Assembly: GCA_003990765.1 (NCBI GenBank)
Contig: RBNJ01000120.1
Location: 1-40,461 of the forward strand
Source: Jimgerdemannia flammicorona
Taxonomy: Eukaryota
Reading direction: 5' to 3'
Length of the DNA stretch: 40,461 bases
Shown here: piece by piece, positions 19,031-33,743 of the stretch
Layout: the number at the start of each line of letters is the position of its first letter
Numbering within the stretch: position 1 is the stretch's first letter
Notes under the pieces: model-generated
Seen by the model: only the letters and a program-made list of their open reading frames with translations
Database searches by the model: none
What the model was told of the DNA's origin: nothing
Program-made: the position numbers and the translations under genes

Positions 19031-20285
19031 ATGGAATTACCTACATCAACGTCCACGGTTGCGAATCCCATCGATACCGTACACTCTGCCGCGACCTTGC
19101 AGGTGGGCGTTCAGCCACAACCGTTTTTAAGCAAGAACACGAAGGACACGTTAGTTGGATTTATTTTGGGCGGGGTGGCGGCGTGCGGAGCGGTAACATT
19201 TACGAATCCGTGGGAGGTGAGGATTTTGTGTTTAGACAGTTGCCAATGGTGGGGTATATCGTTGCAAGACGTGATTTGGGTGCTAGCCATAATACAATGT
19301 CATGTGGGCCTAATATGAGTTTGTTGATCTCGTCGCTTTAGGTAGTAAAAACGCGTCTTCAACTACAAGGTGAACTTGTACGTGCTGGCAACCTAGCTGA
19401 AACCGCCCGCCCATACCGCAATTCTTTCCAAGCGTTAGTACTTGTGTTTCGTCACGAAGGAATTCGCGGTATACAACGTGGTCTTGGATCAGCGTATGTG
19501 TACCAAATCTGTCTGAACGGCACCCGCCTCGGTCTTTACGAACCCATTCGCAACGGCATAAACGATTTATTCAGCAACGACCACAGCAATAACAACATCC
19601 CGGTTCGCATCGCCTCGGGCGGCATCTCGGGCATTTGCGGCGCTGCTATCGGATCTCCTTTCTACCTTGTTAAAACGCGCATGCAGTCGTATTCTCCCTC
19701 GTTTAGCCAGATTGGGCATCAACATCATTACACGTCCATCTATAACGCGCTCTCATCCGTGTTCCGTGCAGAGGGGGTCCGCGGTCTTTATCGCGGAATA
19801 GATGCCGCGATGGCGCGTGCTGGCGTGGGATCTGCTGTACAGCTGCCGACGTACGATATGACCAAGCAGGTATTACGAACGCGCTTTGGAATGGGGGATA
19901 ATTTCTCGACGCATTTTGCATCCAGCTTGATTTGCGGGTTCTTTGTGTGCTGCGCCATGAATCCGTTTGATGTCATTAGCACACGTATGTATAATCAGAA
20001 AATGGATCCGGTGACGGGACAGGGTGTACTGTATAAGAATCCATTGGACTGTGTGGCGAAGATGCTCCACACGGAGGGAGTTGCTGGGTTGTATAAGGGA
20101 TTTTCGGCGCATTATTTAAGAATCGGGTAAGTGAGACGTTGGTGTTTCTCTTGGTTGTTTTTGCTTTTGCGGAGTGTCGCCCAGCCAATAACAACGGTTA
20201 TGGTTTTGTTGTTAGGCCGCATACGGTGCTGATGTTCATCTTCCTCGAGCAATTGAAGAGGGCGTACCATTCGCAGTTCAATTAA
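19031..20285 (+). CDS. OAC1: Mitochondrial oxaloacetate/sulfate carrier (SLC25)
   Basis: GGVAACGAVTFTNPWE|VVKTRLQLQGEL; YQICLNGTRLGLYEP; PFYLVKTRMQSYS; NPFDVISTRMYNQ; LRIGPHTVL; 3 exons. Confidence 0.92.
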
Positions 20286-20513
20286 GTGGTATCCCATATT
20301 ATAGACTAATGTAACTTACATTGCATATTAAATGGTCTTTTGTAACTATGTACGTACACAACCATGGCAAAATCAATATGGAACAAAGCATCACTCGCAT
20401 GATATAGATACTGCTTTGTTCAAACAAAACACGCGACTGCCAAGCCACCTCCTTACTTTGCCCTGACAAGAAATAGAACATCGCAAAGGCTCTTTTTTTC
20501 CCACTCAACCACA

Positions 20514-21697
20514 ATGACTGCTGACCAACCCTTTTCCGAACAGGAATCGTACTACCAATGGCTACATTTACGCTTTGACTGGAGGGGGCAGTGCGAAGGC
20601 ATGTCGCCCTTGGTGCGGAAGACCGTCGAAGACTTTTTTGAACCTGCAATCTTCTTTGGAGAGGGCACCCAGACCGCGAGGACGCAGTTCTTGCTCGGTG
20701 AGACAACTTGGAGGAAGATCATTTCGCCTTTCTTTATGCTTTTCTCTTACTAACACTACCAATGCTTCGGGTCTATTTATAGGCACCAGCCAATTCGACG
20801 GCCGCCGCTACGTCCTCCTTTCCGAACTCGTAGCTTTGCAGCTGCGGTCGCTTCTCACTAACCTTTTGAATCGAAAAATCACCCTCACGGAGCCCAAAAC
20901 TTACTCGCACACCTACCACGACCTTCAACCAATCGTTTTCGAGTCAAAAAAGGTATACTTCAAAACTATGGAAAAGCTCAAGAATATCAATAAGGCGATC
21001 AAGACGAAGGAACGTCTCGAAAACCTCCAAAGCCAATGGCATCGCGCCGCGCAGCTGGTTTCGGAGAAGAAATACATTTTCCTATCTGTAGACATCGAAG
21101 CTTGGGAACGTGATCACTCGCGTCTCCTCGAGATTGGGTGGACACTGTACGATTCACAACGTGAGCAGCTGCAGGATCAACATTACCTGATTTCGGATTA
21201 TCGCCATCTCACGAACGGTAGCTTTGTTGCAGACCGGAAGCAAAATTTCATGTTTGGCACCTCGGTGTGGTCGACGCTGCAAGAGGCTCTGCACGAGCTG
21301 AACAAGGATCTGGCGTGGGCGGTCGACCGTGATGGAGGAGTTGTGCTGGTGGGGCATGACCTCAAGTCAGATATCGTTTATCTGGAGAAGGTCGGGGTCA
21401 TGTGTGGCGAGAGTAATGAAAATGTCGTGGGCCGGTTTGACACGGCGGAAATTTATGCAGCGAAGAATAAGGAACCGAATAATCGGGCCAGTTTGGGCAA
21501 GGCGTTGGACGGTTTGGAGATGGAGAATTGGTGTTTGCATAATGCAGGTGAGTATTCGGGGTTGATACTTTTGTGGGCGCATCAAAGGTTGGAATTTTCC
21601 TCAAATCCTCCGTTCATATTTTGCAGGAAACGACGCCCACTACACCATGGAATTGTTCCTCAAGCTCTGCGACCTCTTACTCGCTGCCGGAAGTTGA
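20514..21697 (+). CDS. Gfd2/YDR514C/QIP-like RNase H-fold DEDD 3'-5' exonuclease, 3 exons
   Basis: Motifs FLSVDIEAWE..LLEIGW, NGSFVAD...F.FGTS, LVGHDLKSD, FDTA, SL...L..L, and LHNAG|NDAHYTM across the last intron. Confidence 0.85.
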
Positions 21698-21900
21698 GTG
21701 ATATATGCACATGGTTGATAATATGTATATGCTCGAGAGAAAGACACTGCTCAAGCCTCACCCTGTACATACATATACATACAGTCTTCCTGTTATGAAA
21801 TAAAGCGACTTGTTAGTGGCTGATTGGACTGGGGTGACTGTTGTTTCTCTCCAAAAACCAGCGAATTTGTCGGATTCCTTTCTTACCTGACAGAACTCCG

Positions 21901-24191
21901 ATGCCGATGCCGTCCGAACTTTCCCAACCCAACGAACCCATCTCGGCAGCATCCACCTCCGCAACTTCCCGCCGCACTACCACCACCAGGCAACCTGCCC
22001 TCGACGAACAGGACAGCACCGACGACTCCTCGGCCAGCACCGGTACTACAACCCGCACCCGCCGTCCGCACCACAGGAAGTCCGACCGCCTCTCCACACC
22101 AGACCCGGAAAATCCGCCCTCGCCTTCCAATTCCGCTGCCGCGAGGCGACGCAGCCCACGACTTAGCCGCGGAACTGCGAGGGGCGACGCTATGCTCGAC
22201 GGGGAGACGAGCGAAATCGTTTTGCGCGACTTGCGCAAGAATAAGGAGTTTGTTGACGAGGAAGACGGAGAAGAAATGGCAGTCGGGATGAGCATAAGGA
22301 GAAAGGCAGGGGATTTTGGTGGGAGGGAGGAGGGAGATTACGCCGAGGGAGTTAACGGCACCGTTGAGGCCTCGTCGGGGGGACACACGGCTGCATCGGC
22401 CCTCTCGAGAAAGGATATCGGAAACATCACCCTGCTAGTCGTCTTGTGTAAGTACACAATACCCCGTCGGGTTGGTTCGGCTCACTTTGCAATGGAGCAC
22501 ACCTCATTCAATATCCTCCCCTCTTCCCAGATCTCCTCCAAGGCATCCCCGTGGGCTTGAGCTTCGGCTCGATCCCCTTCCTCCTTAAGGCGCGGCTCTC
22601 CTACTCTCAGATCGCCGTCTTCTCCCTCTCCTCCTGGCCCTACTCTCTCAAACTTCTCTGGTCGCCTGTCGTCGACTCCATTTACTGGCCCTCATTCGGC
22701 CGGCGGAAGAGCTGGATCGTGCCAATACAAATCCTCACGGGAGTGTTGTTCCTGTGGTTGGGAGCCCATATCGATGGCTGGTTGGCGGAGGTGGGTTGAA
22801 TGGAACTGGGGCAGGAGGCAGGGTTGGAGAGAAATAGAGAGGGCGGGGAAAGTACGGATGTTGTACTTTCAGATCTTTGTGGGAAAACGGGGTTTGACAC
22901 GGTTTACGGGACTTAATGATGAGAGTATCAAATAATATGTTTTCAGCGAAAGCGACCAGCACCGTAGAAACGAAAAAAAGTACCCGACCTCACCGATATC
23001 CTCTCTCCGCATACCCTCCTCCCAAACAGGACCACGTCAACGTCCACGCCCTGACTCTCATCTTTTTCTCCACCATTTTCTTCTGCGCGACCCAAGACAT
23101 CGCAGTCGATGGCTGGGCCCTCACCCTACTCTCCAAATCCTCTCTTTCGTACGCCTCCACCGCCCAGACTGTTGGCCTCAACACGGGATACTTTCTATCC
23201 TTCACCGTCTTTCTCGCGCTCAACTCGGCAGAGTTCTCAAACAAGTATCTTAGGGCCTCTCAAGCATCTGAGGAATTGGGAGTGTTGCGGTTGGGAAGCT
23301 ATCTGATGTTTTGGGCGGTTATGTATTTTGTTATCACGGCATGGTTAGTCGTGATAAAGAAGGAGGTGAGGAATCCTTTTGTAATATACATTTTTCGAGG
23401 CAAAGAGGAGGGGGAGGATTTATATATGAAGTGATTACGTCTACGTTCTACGTGCAAATTGTGTGACGTAATTCCTGTATTAACGGAGGTGATAGTTAGT
23501 GCCAAAAAATAGCTCCATACGAAGAGTTCTCTTTCCGCGCGGCGGATTGGTTACAGTAGCATGTTTTATTGTCGAATTTGTGACTCACGAACCACCTGTC
23601 TTTCCTTATCATCTTCCTAACCTCCCGGTATTAGGAACCCACTACCAGCGATGAGGATCTTGGCATCAAAGGAGTGTACACTACAATCTGGAAGATTTGC
23701 AAACTACCGCGTACGTCCCATCTTTTCCTTCCCTTTTTTTTTTTGCTTTTGTCGGTGCTATTAATTATAATAATCTCACCCATCTCCACTCCAATTCTGG
23801 CAGATATGAAATCTTTCATTCTCGTCCTTCTGACCTCCAAGATCGGTTTCATTGCTAACGAGGCCGTCACGGGACTCAAGTTGCTCGAAAAGGGATTCTC
23901 AAAGGAAGACCTCGCGCTCGCCGTCCTCATCGATTTTCCGTTCCAGATCTTGTTTGGATATTATGCCGCCAAATGGAGTAGCGGGGTTAGGCCGTTGAAA
24001 CCGGTGAGTGTGTGGTGGAGTGAATAGGGAGAAAAAGGCGGATATGGAGGACTGGACTGAATGATGAAAGGGAGAGATTATTTGAATTGATAAGTAGGGA
24101 ATTGGGTTGGTGTTGGCGTCGTGGTAGCGCGCTGATGACAGAAACCTTCTTTCGTACGTTAATATATTCTTCCCTTCACCCTCCCCTCACC

Positions 24192-24222
<31 letters not shown>

Positions 24223-25294
24223 GGCTTTACGCCTTCTATGGCCGTCTCCTCTTCGCCGCCCTAGGCATGGCCGTTGTGCGCTTCTATCCAAGCGACGGCC
24301 ACGTTACTGCCTTCTACTTCTGGGTTATTATCGCCTCCACTGTCCTCTCCAGTTTCATGTCCACCGTCCAATTTGTCTCCATATCGGCGTTCATGACCAC
24401 CATCGCGGATCCAGTTATAGGGGGGACATATATGACGGTGGGTTGGATGAGTCAGCGGTGTGTGTGGGATAAGTAAGAGAGGAGGAGAGAAAGAAAGTAT
24501 TGCGGAAAAGGTGGGATGTATCGCCTTGGAATTGACAAGCGTAACGATAGATGAGTGGGCGAACAGGAGGATGAGTATTTTACTGATACACTAACTGCTT
24601 ACTGATTGAGAGGTTCATTTGTATCATCTTCCGTGCTCCACCCCGTGAACGCAGCTCCTCAATACCTTCAGTAATTTTGGCGGTACCTGGCCAAAATTCT
24701 TTGTTCTTGAGGCCGTTGACTACTTCACCGTTGCCACATGCGACGTACCGGAAACGAATGGCTCGGGTTTGTATTATTTCTTCCCGTTTGATTGTCGCAA
24801 AAAAAATAAAAAATAATAATAATAATAATAATAATAATACAGTTAACAAAATACCCTTCGCCCTCTCTTCCGGTTTTCGATCGATACTGACCCATCTACC
24901 CCCGCCTAGCCCTCTCATGCGTCTCCGAGGCTGGCAAGACACAGTGCCACGACTTGGGTGGCACGTGCATCACCGAGCAGGATGGTTACTATTACGCGAG
25001 CACCATATGCGTTGCCATTGGGTTGGCGATAATGCTGGCGTACGTCAGACCAACCGTGCATTATTTGGAAGGTTAGTGTTGTCATCCATTAATCTCTTTC
25101 TTTCTTTTATTTTTATTGGGGGAGGAAGGACTTCGTACTGGGGATTTGCCGAAAGGCATTGTTCTCGGCTTTCAGTCTCTGGCAGCGTTAGTTTGGTTCC
25201 AATTCGATTCCGATGTTCGGATAATACCATATTGATTTGCACCCTTCTTCCCACAGGCCTACCTAAGAATATGTGGAGGCTGAATCGGAAGTAG
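21901..25294 (+). CDS. Acetyl-CoA transporter 1 (SLC33A1/AT-1 family, MFS)
   Basis: LLQGIPVGL; WPYSLKLLWSPVVDS; GRRKSWIVPIQ; ATQDIAVDGWALTLL; YASTAQTVGLNTGYF; DPVIGGTYMT|LLNTFSNFGGTWP; multi-exon. Confidence 0.93.
24813..24839. repeat. (AAT)n microsatellite, intronic
   Basis: About 9 AAT units. Confidence 0.85.
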
Positions 25295-26364
25295 GCGTAG
25301 AGGAGCTTGGATTGGAAAATCTGTTTAGATTTCTTTCATTACTTTATTACTCCATTGTAATTTAGATCATGTTTGGAAATATATCGTGCGAAATTTTCTG
25401 AGTAAGAAATTCATTACTAAATAACTCTCATCTGTGGCGATTGTATGTAAGCTGTACATCAGCATCTGTGACCCGAATGGCTTCGCTTAACTACGCGTTT
25501 AACAGCTCGTTGGTGTGGTTGTCGGGCGGTAAATCCACTTGCTGTGCATAGGACACTGGGTTAGAATGTAGATGTATCTGTTTATTGGGCGTTTGCTTGT
25601 TGAGGACATAGTGCCATATGGGCCGAGCTTATGACTCGGTGGACGACTTCTCCCGCAAACGAACACATGTCGCACATATTCAAGGCCAGACCCTAGCCCC
25701 GTAATTATTTCTGCTAGCAGCCGATTTCGTTGGGCCCAAATGGTCACAGCTAAACACACTGCAGAGCGTTGTGGCATCATTTCGAGAGCATTTACGGAGA
25801 AATGACTGCACAGGCGAATAAAAAGAAGTAAACCGCGCGCGACTTGGGTGATCCCAGTCTAGCTTTCAAGGGCAGATGGAGATTGGTGACCGCCATGCAT
25901 TTTGTTGAATTATGATCATAATCCTTCCTTTGAAAATATGATTTTCATCTTCGTGTATGGCGAAAACAAAAATAAGGTCTGCTCCATCATGCGACGTCCA
26001 AAATGAAACCAAGTGCTTCAATCCATCGACCCTCCAGTGTTCACGTAACAAGGATAGACATTCTTTGATAGGAGAAGTCATTATTATTATTTTTTGGCAG
26101 GGGGAGGGGGCAGCAAAAAATACAAACACCATGAGGAAAGAAAGCACATCAGTTCCCAAACCATTGTCACGCGCAACAAATACAAGCTAAGCATCACAAA
26201 AACTGTTATACAAGACAGAGAAATCAGAAGTACAAACTGCAACCGAGAAAACCTGCAACCAAGAGAAAGTTGTAATCAAGAAGTGAAACCTGTGCAAAGC
26301 AGACAATTATGTGCAAATATACAAATCAACAAACCGAGGAATTGGAATAATCCACGAAAGTTGT

Positions 26365-26510
<146 letters not shown>

Positions 26511-26657
26511 GAGAGATGCTAAAAGAGGGGGAAGCAAGAGAGAATAATCGACACAACGTAAACATTTATACAAGTATCAAGCAAACTTTTTGAAATACAT
26601 GCCCAGCATGCGGAGGGACGTCGCAAAGGGTAGACATTCCGGAACCATTGTTCACGC

Positions 26658-29099
26658 TCACAACACTTCCTCCATCTTTACTTTCGTCATCCAGAACCTC
26701 GCCCACCCTGTCCTCGCGGTCACCATCTCCCTCGCTCCTTTCCCCATTTTAATCAGCTCCTGTTCCGAGTACGGCAGTTTCCCACCAGCTAACATCTCCA
26801 CCCTCTCGCACGCGTAATGCCCCACATATTCCCATTGGTTCGCCGCTCGCCACACGAACATCGGCACCGACCTACCCACATTTTCGCGCATTGTGTCAGT
26901 GTCCCGTCCGCCACCAAACAGGATACGGGGAGCAAGACGGTTGTGATCGATACGGATTTTGATCCGACCGAGAACGGTGGAAGGGTCACAGGTTTCTGGG
27001 TGGTAAATGATGCGTAGGCCGTATGTCTTTTGGTGGCCGCCACCGTAGAGCACGTGGATCTGTTCGTTGGTGTAATAACTGCCCGTGACGATGGCGGGGA
27101 GAAGGGAGCTAGCCGGGAGCCGGAATGGTTTCGTGAAGCTGGTTGGAGTATCGGAGCCGTCGCCGAAGGAAGCAGTGTCGTCCAGAGAGGATAGGTCGGA
27201 AGCATCCCAATCGTCGATGTTTGTGGTATGGTCCCCCTTGAAAAGGAACTCGTCCAATGCCGGATCATGCTCCTGCTTAAACAGGACCGAATCGGGGCTC
27301 GACAGATTGGGCGCCAACAGTGGCTTCTTTCTGGGTTCGTTTGGCTCGTCTGTCTTCCTCTTTGTACCGCCCTGGCTCACATCTACGCGATCACCTTGCG
27401 GATCACTCCCGTCGCTCGAACTGTCTCTGTCTCTGTCTCTGTCTTCCCGGGTGTTCCTTTTCTTTGACGCCTTTGATCCAACGGCGATTTTTTTGCGCGC
27501 CCTCCTTTTGAAGGCATCACCAGTAGCAGCAGCACGAGACACAACCTGTTCCTTCGCTCCGTTTCGAGATGGCCGGGTCGTGGCGGCGCCTCCTACTGTC
27601 GAGCCGGTAGGGGCTCCTTGAACCCTGCGCCTCCGGCCTTCGCCGAGCTCGCCAAGTCCATTTCCACCATGAGCAAGGCTAATCACCTCTCTCCATTTCC
27701 TGGATTTGATCGGCTTGGGCGAACCATCCCGCTGGTCCGCATCAGTCACTGGATCGGTAGCCATGTCAGTCGCCGCATCGGTAGCCAGTTCAGTCGCTGC
27801 AGTCGCCGCAGTCGCCGCATCGGTAGCCGGTTCAGTCGCCGCATCGGCAGCCAGTTCAATCGCCGCATCGGTAGCCAGTTCAATCGCCGCATCGGTAGCC
27901 GGTTCAGTCACCGCATCGGTAGCCGGTTCAGTCACCGCATCGGTAACCAGATCGGTAGTCGGGTCAGTCGACGCATCGGTCACCGAATCGGTAGCCGGGT
28001 CAGTCGCCGCATCGGTCGACATCAATTTGGTACCGGGCTCGGCAGAGACAATCTGAGGTGGGCTCTCGGGCATGGCACCACTGGATCTGGCATTCGCGAG
28101 GGCCGGGAGTCCGCCCGTGCGCACCGCCCATCGCTTCTTCGTTGTATACGGGAAACCCATTCTTTCCATCGGCGACAGATCTTGCGATTCCGGTGGCGTC
28201 GGTGGGGCGATTTGGGGTCCATCGGGCAGCGGTGAGCCGTGCGTGTGATGGACAAGGCGTGGAGACAACTGATTATTGACTGTGGGTATGGTCGACGATG
28301 AAGTATCCGTGAAAAACGGGTTTCGATTTGATCTACAGTCGTCGAGCTTATTGATGAGTTCCGTGAGAAAGTCAGGTTCCTGCTTCACCATAGCCTCGAA
28401 ATGATCGTGAGCCAAAGAATCGAACGTGGTTTCAGGCTGAGCAGGAGGCTGCGCACTCGAGGACGATGCAGTCAGGCAGGTTTCATCGTATGTAGTCGAC
28501 GGTATCGATGCACGACGTGGCGGGAGAGGTTGACCGGATCGCTTTGCGACGTTCTTCGGGGAGGACGGGGAGGACAATGTTGACACTGACGAAGGTGACG
28601 GTGAGGATGCGCGATCCGTTGAAACCCGGCGGGTTTGCCAATGGGACGCCAATGATTCTTGAGTCATGGGGGGCGTCGGGATACCGTCCAATGCGCGGCC
28701 AAGATCACGATGATTGATTATCTTCAGTTCTGGGAGGAGGGGACGTAGGCGCGAGGGTAGAGGTGAAGACCGCCTGCAAGTATTGGATCTCTTGTCCAGT
28801 TGCATCGTAACTGGAGATGACTCGAGAAGAATGTCCGTGATCTCTTCCTCTTCGTCGTTGCCGTTTACTTCCTCCTCTAGTTTCAACCGTGACGAGCGAG
28901 TCTCGTGGGCTTCTGCCAATAGGATCTGTTCGGTTAGACTATGGTCTTGGATGGAGGCCAGGGGCAGGGGGACAGATCTCTTTGCCACGTTGCGCCGCAG
29001 GTCCTTGTTTTCGTCTGTGGCAGAGCCGGGAGGGGAAGGGGGTAAAGTCGGCTCCACGTTTTGTTCAGGGGAGCTGGTCAAGGTACGATAGTGGTGATG

Positions 29100-29133
<34 letters not shown>

Positions 29134-29369
29134 TGGCTGTGGCTATAGGAGCGAAAGGTAGTATAGTGGGGCCTGTAGTGTGTCCGGTGTGGGAAGTTTG
29201 TGGGAGGTTCGTCTGGGTGGTTCCAGCAGGCCTCGTAGTAGGTGGGTCTGTGGTGCTCGTCTGTCTTGTAGTGTTGGGGGCGTATCCAGGCCACGGTCTC
29301 CTCTATATCACGGGATGCGTGGAGGGGGAAGTAGGCGGTCCTGTTGGGGAGGGGCGTTGGCCTGAACAT
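26658..29369 (-). CDS. Intronless ~900-aa low-complexity protein with a C-terminal SRA/PUA-like (DUF6697-like) globular domain
   Basis: Uninterrupted 927-codon ORF (first ATG 29441, likelier start 29369). Rich in S/P/T, with TDAATEPA repeats and basic NLS-like patches (KRRARKK, KRK..RKK). Last ~140 aa: GSYYTNEQIHVLYGGGHQ...SVPMFVWRAANQWEYVGHY. The ORF is solid; the domain call is tentative. Confidence 0.75.
27740..28020 (-). repeat. Coding 24-bp minisatellite encoding TDAATEPA-like units (about 11 copies)
   Basis: Repeated gcatcggtagcc(g/a)gttca(g/a)tc(g/a)cc on the + strand. Confidence 0.9.
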
Positions 29370-29507
29370 GGTTTCGCAGCAAGAAAAAGAGGATAGATGA
29401 CACGAACCACCACGACAACACAACACAGCCCACCTATGCACACAGACCCATTTCAGTCAGAGTCACCTGCACGTGACCACGGCCATCAAACCCACCCAAC
29501 CCCTACA

Positions 29508-30576
29508 TCACTGCATCTGCTGCATCTGCTGCATCTGCTGCTGCATCTGTTGCACCTGCTGCACCTGCGCCATCACGCTCTTCTGGAAAATTCGTCCACT
29601 TCTTTCCGCAAGAGAACAGACGCGTCCCAACTGCCCCGCAGACAGCACCGATCCATGCCTCCGGACAAACATCACCAGCATCTGCCCCAGCTTCCGTGAC
29701 ACCGCCACCGAACCACATATATTGCTGGACAACCCTTGCAATATCTGTTCCACAATCCCATCATCGAACTGAACCTTTTGCTGAAGCACACTCAGGAGAA
29801 TCGTTGCAGTCATATCCGGCCAGAGTGACCCCCCCACCTGGCCGCAGAGAATCGACCTATATATGTTTTTGGGAGAATAGAAAGAGTGAGTACACCAACC
29901 ACGTCATGAACCCCATAGCGGCAACTATCGTCACCTTAGCAAAGCCAGAGTGGCCATCTCGTTCAGTCCTTCGTTGATGGCTCTTGTCGCTACATCGATC
30001 TGTGGCCGCCCTGTGGTGCCGACGATAAGATGCGCCAAACACAACGTCAAAACCGGCGGCCGTTCTCTTCAATCAATCCCTCGCCGCTCCTTTTGTCCAT
30101 CCCATAAACATACCAACATCGTCACCATGTACGAGCGGTAACAATAGACCATCAACCACCGCCTTGCCCTTTGCCTTGGACGCGTTCAGAATGGATGTGA
30201 TGAGAATTCGCGACGGGGCGGTAGTCAGCTCACGTACCTTATATATCAAAAAAGGAAAGCGTTGACGATTCACACCAGATTGATCGATTGCGTGTTGGAA
30301 ATTTGAAAGGAAATCAAACACACTGACCTTCACCAGAAGGGTAGACTGCAGGAATGTGACACAATTCTGATACACCACATCCTCCGCCTCGCACATTTGG
30401 TTGCACAAACTGGCAATGACTTCCTCATCAAGCCGCGACAAGTTCAAGTCGTGTAATATGGTCTCCATCTTCATATATATATAGCCGACGAAACCGTAAT
30501 AAGACAAGCGGGAGGGGGAGTGGATTGAGCTCGATACAAAAAAAAAAAACTACACTTTGGCGTTTCCTGACACGAG

Positions 30577-30614
<38 letters not shown>

Positions 30615-31374
30615 GCGCCAGGTAGCCGCATAAGCGCATCGAACTCGTCCCGCACGTCAACCTGTGCAAGCGAGTCCCCTTGCTCGTTCTGCGTAAGCTT
30701 CGCCTTAAAGTTTTCCAGTAACTCGATGTTATATGGATAGTCTTCGGGTGTGTTAACGTTGGCCTCGTGTTGTATTCCACTCTCTCCTATTTCTTCGCGC
30801 CACGAGGATTGAACAATTGAATGCGATATTAATACATAACGGCAAAAAAGCTCCCACCAAGTTACAATGGTCTCGTCAAAACGTGCAATATGCTTGGGTC
30901 ATTGGTACCCACCGAGCTGACCAATGCCACCGAACGACCGCTTCCAGCGGTCTGAATTCCGCCGGCGCTTCGATCTAATGTACTCGCCCGAGACGTAATT
31001 CATAGAACTCATTGTTAAGGATCACGTAGTGAACTACCGGCACAGCACTTCAACCCGGAATCCAGAAAAAAAAAAAAAGGATATGAAAATGGGTTCGCAC
31101 GTCCTCTTGCTTCTGGCGCTATGATCATCTACTGTCTGCACGAGTGTGCCTGCAAGCCAGATATAGCATTAGCCGACGACATTTGTGTAGCAAAAGACAA
31201 GGAGACCAATTTCGAAGGTCAACCTGGGAATTGTAGGAGTGGAGCCGGCTCTCTGCCACCTAAGTTTGCTAGGCTATTTGAAATAGTGGCTGGCATAGCA
31301 AATAGCGGTGCGTGTGTTCCAAGATGGTGCTTCCATTCCTGCAGAGCCGGTGCGTTGGCGGGGTGGAAGGTCAT
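29508..31374 (-). CDS. FANCE: Fanconi anaemia group E (FANCE C-terminal domain) homologue
   Basis: LNLSRLDEEVIASLC..YQNCVTFLQSTLLVKVRELTTAPSRILITSI..AVVDGLLLPL and W...ILLSVLQQKV..SRKLGQMLVMFVRRHG..IFQKS parallel the FANCE C-terminal helical repeats as I recall them. Q/M-repeat tail. 5' end uncertain: ATG 31374 with a well-formed intron 31223-31150, or ATG 31012. Confidence 0.72.
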
Positions 31375-31689: not shown

Positions 31690-33743
31690 TTACAACTTCG
31701 CCTTTCCGGTAATCAAGGCGTACGACCTCTCTCTCTGCTTCTCGAGAGATTTGGTGACCTCCGCGGCACGACGGAGCTCGACTTTGCCAATCTGCGCAAT
31801 GTGGACTTCGTCGGGACCTTTGATGGGAATGTTGTAGATGATCGGAGGTCAGTAAGATAAAAATAGCACGTGTATGTAAATGCCTAAAACTTACCATCGG
31901 CGTATCGCAGAGTCCTGGCCTGAGCATAGGACCTAGCGAGGATGAAGTCCTGGCTCACGCCGCCGGCGCCGTGAGCTTGCATGGCGCGGTCGAGGACCGT
32001 GAGGAGCATGGTGGGGACAACGGCCTGGCGTTGTCAAATAACAAAGTCAGCAAAGGATGAAGGTACACTTGAAGTTCACAAAATAATGCTCCAAGTATTG
32101 AGAGTAGTTTACAGCCAACTCATTGTTCGCGGTGGCTATTCACAGCGATGTCTCAATGTGACCCCTTACCTTAGCCATGCCAATCTCCTTCATCGCGCCT
32201 TTGGCCTTAACCTCGTCGATTCGTTTCGCGGCGTTTAGGACAAGGAACCTAGCCTGATCGATATCCATACGCGATTTGGCAATATCAGCAACGACGGTTC
32301 CATGCTCAGCGAGTAGCTTGCCGAAGGTGCGACGCGACGGGTCCGTCACGCGAGCGAGCAATAGGTCCAAGGCACGCTCGGCGACGCCGATGCAGCGCAT
32401 GCTACAAGATGAGGTGATGATTTCAAAGTGTCAAGAATTAGCTTTTCGATGCATGAGATATCGAGATCAGAAATTTTCTGAGTTTGTATACATACCAGTG
32501 GTGAATGCGGCCAGGGCCCAACCTGCCCTGAATGACCTCGAACCCACGACTCTCGCCCAGAACCATGTTCTCGACAGGGACACGCACGTCCTTAAACAGG
32601 ATCTCGCAATGACCCTCTGGCGCGTCGTCATAGCCGAACACGGTCATGGGGCGCACGACGGTGATGCCAGGGGTGTCGGCGGGAACGATGATGAGGCTTT
32701 GTTGGCGATGCTTTTCTTTGTTCTTGGGATCGCTCTTCCCCATGACGAGGTAGACCGCGCAGCGTGGGTCACCGGCGCCCGAAATCCACCACTTAAGGCC
32801 GTTAATGACGTACTCATTACCGACGCGCTGGATCGAGGTCTCGATGTTGGTGGCGTCGGAAGAGGCGACCTTCTTCTCAGTCATAGCAAAGGCCGAGCGT
32901 ATTTTGCCGTCCAGGAGAGGCTTGAGCCATTTTTCCTTCTGGGCTGGGGTGCCATATTTGGCGAAGACCTCCATGTTGCCGGTGTCGGGGGCGGAGCAGT
33001 TGCAAGCCTGAGAAAATTTGAGGGATTAATATGCCATGGTTCATACGTTTCAAAGGTGATATATCTGTGGCCATTCGGGCGAGGATGTCAGTTCCGTCGC
33101 GCACAAAAAAGGCATGATCATATAACCCTCGCGATCAGTACTGCCGAAAACCATTTGCTATTGCTCTTCATTGGAGCAGCACACGGTTTATCAAAGTTGC
33201 TCGGGGTGTAAGATAATGGCTCGGTAACCCGAGATCGATCAACTCACCTCGGAGGCGATGTGCAAGCTCCTACCCATGACCTCTGCCATAAGAGCGTACT
33301 CGAGGTTGCTCAGGCCAGCACCCTCCGGGTACTCCTTGGTCAGGAAGAGGTTCCAAAGGCCGAGCGAGCGGGCCTTCGTCTTGAGTTCCTCCATAATTGG
33401 GGGGACAACCTAAGTGATCGAAGTGAAAGTGAGCGTTATGAGAGGTGGTTTGTAGTATGACCTGACAGGACGCCAATGACGAAAGCTAGTGCAGAAAGGA
33501 GCGACAGACAAGATTTGCAACACACCTTCCAACGATTCTCGCCTTGGCCCAGTTGCGCCTCGAAGACCTTCTCTGCGGGCATGCAGTCATTCTGTTGTGA
33601 GCGGTAGTTTAGTTGGAAGTGAAGGGACATAGTAACGAGCGGACGGGGCAAGGCAATACCTCGACAAAGTCCTTGAGGGTGGCGTAAAGATGCTGAAACT
33701 TGGGCGAGAAGGTCCTGATGTCGACGAGGGATTGGGTTGCCAT
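31690..33743 (-). CDS. Peroxisomal acyl-CoA dehydrogenase (ACAD10/11-like, no kinase-like domain)
   Basis: [73 protein letters not shown]-terminal PTS1 -AKL*. Confidence 0.93.

Follow-up and report, generated by a model that had tools for sequence, protein, structure and literature searches.

A predicted SRA-fold, DUF6697-type domain at the end of a long low-complexity protein of Jimgerdemannia flammicorona

Introduction

Few dedicated readers of DNA modification have been described in fungi, and the locus presented here raises the question whether a gene whose product ends in a bacterial-style domain could encode one. The locus lies in a 40,461-nt stretch of DNA from Jimgerdemannia flammicorona (contig RBNJ01000120.1 of assembly GCA_003990765.1), which was analyzed as a whole and is called the window. 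Its minus strand carries, at 26658..29369 (stop codon included), the single-exon coding sequence of P0001, a protein of 903 amino acids (aa). P0001 features a low-complexity region (residues 1–750) and a C-terminal domain (residues 759–903; 26661..27095, minus strand), which is classed as a predicted SRA-fold domain of divergent DUF6697 type on the basis of a sub-threshold Pfam match, a hidden Markov model (HMM) made from bacteria only, and predicted models. An earlier note on this DNA, written from the letters alone, had taken the domain for a candidate reader of modified bases. The reading preferred here is that P0001 is a nuclease-less reader of a modified or flipped DNA base, tethered to a disordered tail; as judged by models and comparisons, we see the arguments for and against it as evenly balanced.

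Family membership of the C-terminal domain

The last 173 aa of P0001, named P0002, served as the query for searches and models. When P0002 is compared with 1.84 billion representatives by exhaustive phmmer search, four matches are obtained at E ≤ 1e-3. The sole ortholog among them is P0003, a protein of 847 aa (E 2.1e-67), which is colinear with P0001 at 36% identity over 929 columns and reaches 68% identity in the domain. The compact C-terminal domain of the earlier note is borne out by this difference and by a confident fold, and it extends over about 26661–27095. P0006, a metagenomic protein of 289 aa, is matched at E 6.5e-4, and pairwise BLASTP aligns it at 31% identity over 132 columns. 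The remaining two matches, P0004 and P0005, are internally repetitive proteins that are matched in 8–9 short stretches; they were judged spurious by eye. For further fungal relatives, a peptide-pattern scan of the JGI metagenomes gave 212 candidate stretches, none of which was confirmed, and a degenerate DNA pattern for the clade-specific hairpin has no matches in the same metagenomes.

DUF6697 (PF20411) is the single Pfam family matched. P0002 scores 20.1 bits (E 6.2e-4), below the gathering cut-off of 23.9, and the match spans profile positions 38–90 of 177; the scores of the full-length proteins are also sub-threshold (17.2 bits for P0001 and 19.2 bits for P0003). The connection to this family is made by bacterial proteins. 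They were aligned with the fungal domains in two sets: alignment A1 has 15 rows, and alignment A2 has 107, namely 105 bacterial sequences and the two fungal domains. PF20411 is matched by all 107 rows of A2 at E ≤ 1 (best 3.2e-8), and several bacterial family members exceed its cut-off. If only the 105 bacterial rows are used to build an HMM, it gives P0002 37.1 bits (E 1.2e-13, single target) and P0003 29.6 bits. Because this bacteria-only HMM finds P0002 and the rows of A2 match PF20411, the domain is placed in the DUF6697 superfamily; as judged by sequence scores, it is a divergent member nearer to the bacterial type than to the Pfam model. In the ESM Atlas, the top neighbors of the domain are Basidiomycota DUF6697 clusters (0.94 and 0.93), which serve as a lead only. 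The kinship with DUF6697 and the bacterial style of the domain, both claimed in the earlier note, hence hold in a particular form: The kinship runs through a bacterial bridge family, and the closest kin outside the ortholog are bacterial, several of them fused to HNH.

NCBIfam and PADLOC give no match to P0002 or P0006, and a literature search found no paper mentioning DUF6697 or PF20411. By Pfam, P0001 contains no HNH, PD-(D/E)xK, or other nuclease, and the C-terminal domain ends the protein at the stop codon (26658–26660)—in agreement with the earlier statement that no nuclease follows the domain.

Predicted fold

The AlphaFold2 model made from A1 has a mean predicted local distance difference test score (pLDDT) of 74.8. 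The model made from A2 reaches a mean of 76.4 and a predicted template modeling score of 0.68, with residues 81–130 at 87–94. The pLDDT of the model core lies above 90, and the weak parts are the N-terminal linker and a loop at P0002 residues 51–69 (below 50). A Foldseek search against the PDB gives no match at E ≤ 1e-3; the best one has an E of 3.4e-3 and a template modeling score of about 0.4–0.5, and the ranking is headed by SUVH6, SUVH5, TagI, SUVH9, AspBHI, and ScoMcrA. Upon realignment of the Foldseek candidates with VIA-align, SRA domains occupy ranks 1–48 among the best 50 at Z 8.6–5.9—for example, SUVH5 (3q0d) at Z 8.6 with a root-mean-square deviation of 3.3 Å over 106 aligned residues, and ScoMcrA (5zmm) at Z 8.0.

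A scan of 48,161 representative PDB chains, independent of Foldseek, returns SRA domains exclusively in its top 15, at Z 8.5–6.5: AspBHI at 8.5 (2.9 Å, 118 aligned), LpnPI at 8.2, SUVH5 at 8.1, ScoMcrA at 8.0, KRYPTONITE at 7.8, AbaSI at 7.7, SUVH6 at 7.3, PvuRts1I and MspJI at 7.1, TagI at 7.0, UHRF1 at 6.7 and 6.6, SauUSI at 6.6, and SUVH9 at 6.5. These matches cover model residues ~25–173, and the next match after them drops to Z 4.7. Below this gap come phage tail-tip proteins and other PUA-like domains—YqfB/ASCH at 4.6, YTH at 4.0–3.6, and the EVE domain of VcaM4I at 4.0—of which the matches cover only ~67–173 of the model and do not exceed Z 4.7. Because the top matches are uniformly SRA, cover the whole domain, and stand above the gap to Z 4.7, the prediction that the C-terminal domain has the SRA fold, a PUA-like β-barrel of the SAD/SRA type, is well supported by the models. 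Rows within 1 Z unit are tied, and therefore no SRA subfamily is preferred; UHRF1/2 range from Z 6.6 to 7.9 across the structural comparisons. The earlier note had proposed a comparison by AlphaFold and Foldseek and had named a fold unrelated to PUA and SRA as the outcome that would speak against it; in the comparison, SRA domains lead, and this outcome did not occur.

A number of results weigh against reading the domain as an SRA module. Best Z values of 7–8 are common for models without true matches. For P0002, Pfam gives no SRA family at E ≤ 10, SAD_SRA (PF02182) and SRA (PF18491) included, and none of the 107 rows of A2 matches the SAD_SRA or SRA families at E ≤ 1. Profile searches of the PDB return chance matches only (ANC27 at E 0.044, eL43 at 0.38, and gp120 at 1.2). 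Direct comparison by hhalign of A2 with five bacterial SAD_SRA domains (A5; PF02182 was found in 5 of 401 genomes) yields a probability of 3.8% and an E of 0.011 over 31 columns; the stretch pairs VPVFLKR...WEYVGxYRV with PVRVIR...YRYDGLYRV and, hence, amounts to the YDG hairpin only, the one to which the earlier note had drawn attention. In addition, a single-protein sequence search of the PDB gives no match, HMMER finds no match to SRA restriction-enzyme chains, and identity in the SRA structural alignments is 8–16%. Scans of 3 and of 401 genomes gave no PF18491; control genomes likewise gave nothing, so that these scans are uninformative on absence. With the DUF6697 clusters excluded from the Atlas, a bacterial member has SRA_ScoMcrA and SRA as its nearest named clusters, at 0.85–0.87 (again a lead only). 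The likeness to ScoMcrA-type SRA domains claimed in the earlier note thus stands for the predicted fold and finds no support at the level of sequence, where a YDG-like hairpin is all that is aligned.

Conserved and replaced residues

Of the 34 columns that are at least 80% conserved among the 105 bacterial sequences, 19 are identical in P0002: Y36, T37, I41, G46, G47, Y59, P61, V69, N80, A83, P84, G90, P106, F108, W116, Y118, V119, G120, and R150. The structural core motifs—Y36, GGG, N80, AP, PxF, and WEYVG—are retained. The fungal pair also features an insertion of 19 aa, KTYGLRIIYHPETCDPSTV, at residues 781–799 of P0001 (26973..27029, minus strand), which is missing from the bacterial rows of A1 and A2 and corresponds to the low-confidence loop at P0002 residues 51–69.

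Other changes count against the function as a reader of bases. Both fungal proteins have lost, by replacement or deletion, four polar residues that hardly vary among the bacterial relatives. The two proteins are changed at R→N (YTR), at P→R and D→L/Y (NPDAP), and at K→W (FLKR), and a bacterial Q conserved to 93% is deleted in both; further changes common to them are L→H/D (YLP) and L→F. The replaced polar residues would be the obvious candidates for DNA or base contacts. Because they are replaced, the binding of a ligand by the fungal domain may be changed or lost.

A rival explanation is built on these changes: The SRA scaffold is kept, the reading of modified bases is lost or altered, and the domain serves as a modification-blind DNA- or RNA-binding module or as a protein-interaction module of a fast-evolving, lineage-specific protein. 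The four polar residues, the gained insertion, the mere 19 of 34 conserved columns, and the single ortholog among 1.84 billion representatives, with none confirmed in the JGI metagenomes, all speak for it. However, no other well-conserved part of the protein is as large as the domain, the strain differences listed within it lean synonymous (5:3), and the core motifs are intact. We regard the loss of base reading as rather unlikely, if a serious contender to the nuclease-less reader proposed here.

Bacterial relatives and their genomic context

A search seeded with P0006 finds 14 proteins at E ≤ 1e-3 among 1287 candidates, and the profile of A1 finds 216 at E ≤ 0.01 among 1923 candidates. The best 120 of these 216 relatives are mostly free-standing proteins of about 120–145 aa, many with a precomputed PF20411 label; three source names occur among the listed relatives, namely Gemmatimonadaceae ('DUF6697 family protein'), Actinobacteria, and Chloroflexi metagenome-assembled genomes (MAGs). 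A search for longer forms adds nine proteins, including HNH fusions and one HD_4/HD fusion, and one longer relative is called '5-methylcytosine-specific restriction protein A' by its source. Pfam, applied to 15 relatives, detects HNH at E ≤ 0.01 in six of them (P0016, P0018, P0019, P0136, P0139, and P0140)—above the Pfam cut-off in three (P0018, P0139, and P0140)—and HD_4 in P0138.

A scan of one genome per prokaryotic species locates the domain at 34 loci, all in MAGs, from Verrucomicrobiota, Gemmatimonadota, Planctomycetota, Acidobacteriota, Chloroflexota, Desulfobacterales, a gammaproteobacterium, and others. Up to a distance of about 1.3 kb from the 34 matches, the neighbor scan took in 128 open reading frames (ORFs). 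Neighbors of defense or mobile-element type occur at 12 of the 34 loci. Mobile elements are represented by an IS110 transposase (L001), an integrase (L010), an IS481 element together with TIR/SEFIR (L013), and an rve integrase (L033). The other eight loci have ResIII, PIN, and DUF7008 (L002), PIN (L006), WYL/PafC, Pua-like, IrrE-M78, and DUF4411 (L008), a ParE/RHH toxin–antitoxin pair (L014), AIPR (L028), AIPR with Mrr_cat (L030), a CAP12/Pycsar TIR protein (L032), and ORF6N (L034). At L008:2756-3913, which is from a Gemmatimonadaceae MAG, the domain gene has the WYL/PafC regulator and a 386-aa protein with the sub-threshold 'Pua-like' match before it and the IrrE-type M78 peptidase and DUF4411 after it; as read from the sequence, this arrangement would pair two PUA-type sensors in a defense-like island.

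The contexts are mixed, and this is a further point against a DNA sensor: In at least 7 of the 34 loci, the domain is found inside or between housekeeping genes (gltB, nuoL/nuoM, RNase J, IMPDH, and DnaG). Free-standing copies are located between two Proton_antipo_M genes (nuoL/nuoM-like) in two Verrucomicrobia MAGs (L011:3992-4372 and L019:4001-4381) and between gltB and gltD (L027), beside IMPDH (L020), and beside DnaG (L021); the domain gene of L014 also follows RNase J. In two Verrucomicrobiota MAGs, a DUF6697-like domain of ~125 aa lies in frame inside GltB (L022:1079-6184 and L026:7-4311). Both inserts use the same site, between the motifs ...GGEDP.R(F/Y) and ...DSKNSAIKQVASGRFGV, and split the Glu_synthase Pfam domain, for which the uninterrupted GltB of L027 (L027:6-3635) is the reference; Pfam shows no intein (Hint) domain in the insert copies. 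The copies in conserved operons suggest a small mobile gene landing there. The mix of bacterial contexts fits a small mobile DNA-sensing module, which is not proof of one, and it accords equally well with a defense sensor and with a module that is selfish or mobile. At L009:4001-4837, in a Planctomycetaceae MAG, a 279-aa frame joins a DUF6697-like domain to PF06983 (3-dmu-9_3-mt, glyoxalase-like); the two domains may be genuinely fused, or permissive start codons may have given rise to the joint frame.

Copies in or beside metabolic genes such as gltB and nuo are odd for a sensor of DNA, and they favor another explanation, according to which the target of the domain is a free nucleotide or a modified base of RNA, as it is for the PUA-like domains of YTH, EVE, and ASCH/YqfB type. 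These PUA-like domains do appear in the fold list, but in its lower part and with a shorter cover of the model; every one of the 15 matches at Z ≥ 6.5 is an SRA domain that binds DNA, and bacterial relatives are fused to HNH DNA nucleases. Reading of RNA or of nucleotides is hence considered improbable, and DNA is retained as the ligand of the proposed reader.

Gene model and transcription

The 903 aa of P0001 are counted from the first ATG, and the reading frame stays open upstream of it to 29456. The ATG at 29369 is supported because the ortholog starts similarly—the motif EETVAW lies at residue 16 of P0003 and residue 23 of P0001. Of the span 26658..29441 given in the earlier note, the ORF itself is real, and 29441 lies in the open frame upstream of this ATG.

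Transcription was judged from X1 and X2, two sequencing runs labeled 'RNA?', which behave as RNA since their contigs skip introns. The contigs splice at least 14 introns of neighboring genes, of which 11 are GT..AG introns of plus-strand genes (19214–25255) and three are CT..AC introns of a minus-strand gene (31815–32496). Across the P0001 ORF, they are colinear and have no joint (for example, 26528–27902 and 28656–29087 in X1, and 26643–27293 and 27916–28531 in X2). Because the contigs run through without joints and the neighbors are spliced, the ORF is real, transcribed, intronless in the parts covered by RNA, and, with its ortholog, conserved. The single exon among intron-bearing genes that the earlier note had seen is thereby confirmed, and the lack of a transcript, which it had listed as a contrary outcome, did not occur. 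Contig depth on the ORF is 4.5–7.2 in X1 and 12–93 in X2, compared with 1.6/0 and 0/0 at the intergenic bins 25538–26004 and 30675–31141; contig depth is a poor measure of expression, and the presence of the transcript is all that is claimed from it. In addition, two root metatranscriptome runs have one contig each inside the ORF, at 27097–27363 and 26862–27039, with 0 differences.

X2 represents a variant strain. Its two indels in the ORF, 6 nt missing at 27239 and 3 nt added behind 28253, are both in frame. Base differences listed within the ORF number 28, of which 14 are synonymous, at a synonymous to non-synonymous ratio of 5:3 in the C-terminal domain and 9:11 elsewhere; the list is partial, and this split is only indicative. 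A chance ORF in GC-rich repetitive DNA, with no gene behind it, would account for the low-complexity sequence, an internal 24-bp tandem repeat, and the long ORFs on the opposite strand and in other frames. It is at odds with the RNA cover, the ortholog at E 2.1e-67, the confident fold, and the exclusively in-frame indels, and it is refuted for practical purposes by the ortholog, the fold, and the RNA; we give it next to no credence.

The window also carries genes for an acetyl-CoA transporter, a mitochondrial carrier, and a DEDDh exonuclease, because of which the DNA is taken as eukaryotic and fungus-like. A second copy of the C-terminal domain is absent from the 40,461 nt as judged by tblastn. 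In the 3′ flank or untranslated region, 160–290 nt past the stop codon, lies a homopolymer tract of 135 nt (26365..26499, minus strand; T on the strand of the gene). One X2 contig jumps from 26290 to 26643 at this homopolymer; the skip of 352 nt has the non-canonical ends TG..GG, and it probably stems from an indel between the strains or from the assembly of the repeat, not from splicing. Upstream, a minus-strand gene (29508–30898) stops ~140 bp before the ATG of P0001. Its tail is Q/M-rich, from a CAG/ATG repeat (29511–29568), and it has a weak, sub-threshold U3snoRNP10-like match. No joint connecting it with the P0001 ORF is listed, at a thin RNA contig depth of 0.4–3.

Low-complexity region

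Residues 1–750 of P0001 are of low complexity: Ser, Thr, Pro, Ala, and Asp together constitute 49% of them, as compared with 22% of the C-terminal domain, and Pfam has no match within this region. The long disordered-looking N-terminal part described earlier is thus recovered, with the labels of disorder and of nuclear localization signals (NLSs) resting on composition and eye. P-T/S-P-P motifs are present as described, but they are few (six matches). The motif reported as a duplicated NVAKRS..PLP is indeed repeated, in three copies instead of two: NVAKRSVPLP at residues 127–136 (28962..28991), a second copy at residues 196–205 (28755..28784), and a third at residues 273–283 (28521..28553), all on the minus strand. 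They follow the pattern [NT]x[AC][KR]R[ST]..LP and are all colinear in the ortholog, where their counterparts lie at residues 108, 149, and 228 of P0003.

A block of 27 aa, KSRKW...GEGRRR, at residues 555–581 (27627..27707, minus strand) is 100% identical in P0003. Its conservation is above that of the SRA-fold domain, its surroundings align poorly, and it belongs to no Pfam family. Two basic patches are NLS-like by eye, as the earlier note had noticed: one at residues 621–640 (27450..27509, minus strand) and one, TKRKT..PRKK, at residues 669–682 (27324..27365, minus strand), which is largely conserved in P0003, if not identical. Other islands common to both proteins are AQPPAQPE, VKQEPD, KKRWAVRTGG, and KQEHDP, and two psi-K-x-E sites are conserved in the region. 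The 24-bp tandem repeat consists of 11.7 copies at 27742..28016 (minus strand; residues 452–543) and encodes an acidic, T/D/A-rich repeat of 8 aa. No matching repeat is aligned in P0003, and its length may differ between strains, the cover of X2 dipping in the adjoining bin 27406–27872.

This composition, together with the structure of the gene, bears on the possibility that P0001 is the remnant of a horizontally acquired, selfish module of bacterial type, fused to random low-complexity sequence and of little or no function for the host. Such an origin would be in line with the intronless gene among intron-rich neighbors, with the GC content of the ORF (57% vs 48% for the window), with a nearest non-orthologous relative of bacterial type, and with bacterial copies that behave like mobile inserts. 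However, other coding stretches likewise exceed the mean GC content of the window, transcripts of the gene are seen in two strains and in RNA from the environment, and the conservation of the motifs and the 27-aa block in the ortholog points to selection on the protein as a whole. We hold such a remnant to be quite unlikely.

Proposed function

In the proposed reader, the SRA-fold tail would bind duplex DNA at a modified base, probably by flipping the base into a pocket. A modified cytosine would be the most likely base because the structural neighbors with known ligands all read 5-methylcytosine (5mC), 5-hydroxymethylcytosine, or its glucosylated form, as judged by PDB titles. A preference for N6-methyladenine (6mA) specifically finds no support. 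Because a nuclease is lacking, the protein would act as a reader or adaptor: The disordered region of ~750 aa would recruit partners to the marked DNA through the three motifs, the 27-aa block, and the psi-K-x-E sites, and the basic patches would direct the protein to the nucleus. The product is lineage-restricted and probably nuclear.

A broader proposal, which is speculative and which we would not expect to hold as a whole, takes the DUF6697 superfamily as an unrecognized branch of SRA-type readers and this gene as a second, independent recruitment of a bacterial restriction-type reader into a eukaryotic chromatin protein. Equally tentatively, the superfamily would then bring P0001, with its long tail, together with the many short Basidiomycota proteins and with small bacterial proteins in their hundreds. 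If true, it would supply a candidate for the missing dedicated reader of DNA modification in fungi. If the domain did not bind modified DNA, the finding would shrink to the assignment of a fold to a domain of unknown function.

Comparison with known systems

The DUF6697 family of Pfam is the closest named relative. Common to both are the sole Pfam match, the bridging bacterial family, which itself matches PF20411, and the top neighbors in the Atlas. The differences are the sub-threshold score (20.1 vs 23.9 bits), the partial cover of the profile, and the better fit to the bacterial profile (37.1 bits). In addition, the DUF6697 clusters of the Atlas consist of short proteins of 167–258 aa, whereas P0001 has 903 aa. 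DUF6697, to which no function is assigned, gains from this comparison a predicted fold, a testable activity, and a link to bacterial nuclease fusions, and its nuclease-less version is seen on a conserved, transcribed fungal protein.

The SRA modules of type IV restriction enzymes (ScoMcrA, TagI, AspBHI/LpnPI/MspJI, AbaSI/PvuRts1I, and SauUSI) are among the best structural matches of the domain. The HNH-fused bacterial relatives have the same architecture as the SRA-HNH enzymes, as far as these are presented in parts of two reports (PMC4333417, PMC6212794). Type IV enzymes carry the nuclease in the same protein, whereas P0001 has none, and the resemblance of their modules to the domain is confined to structure, given the low identity and the missing HMMER match described above.

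UHRF1/UHRF2 and SUVH5/6/9/KRYPTONITE have the fold class in common with the predicted domain of P0001 and are likewise nuclease-less eukaryotic proteins. In contrast to them, P0001 and P0003 lack RING, PHD, tandem-Tudor, and pre-SET/SET domains (Pfam, E ≤ 1), and the SAD_SRA invariant GGYxDDxDxG..IYTGxGG, as present in the five A5 sequences, has no accepted alignment to the DUF6697-like family. In fungi, a UHRF1 homolog assists DNMT5 in C. neoformans. This stripped-down Cryptococcus homolog is the only fungal 5mC adaptor named in the portion of a 2026 review drawn on here, and the same portion states that fungi have no identified canonical 6mA reader (PMC13297926). The eukaryotic SAD/SRA domain is considered a descendant of the DNA-binding domains of restriction enzymes, as stated in a part of an earlier work (PMC3417536). 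On the strength of the predicted models, P0001 is an SRA-fold module of an uncharacterized superfamily in a new eukaryotic architecture; if the reading of modified DNA proves true, it would be a second example of the route proposed there for SAD/SRA, in which the DNA sensor of a restriction enzyme becomes a eukaryotic chromatin reader.

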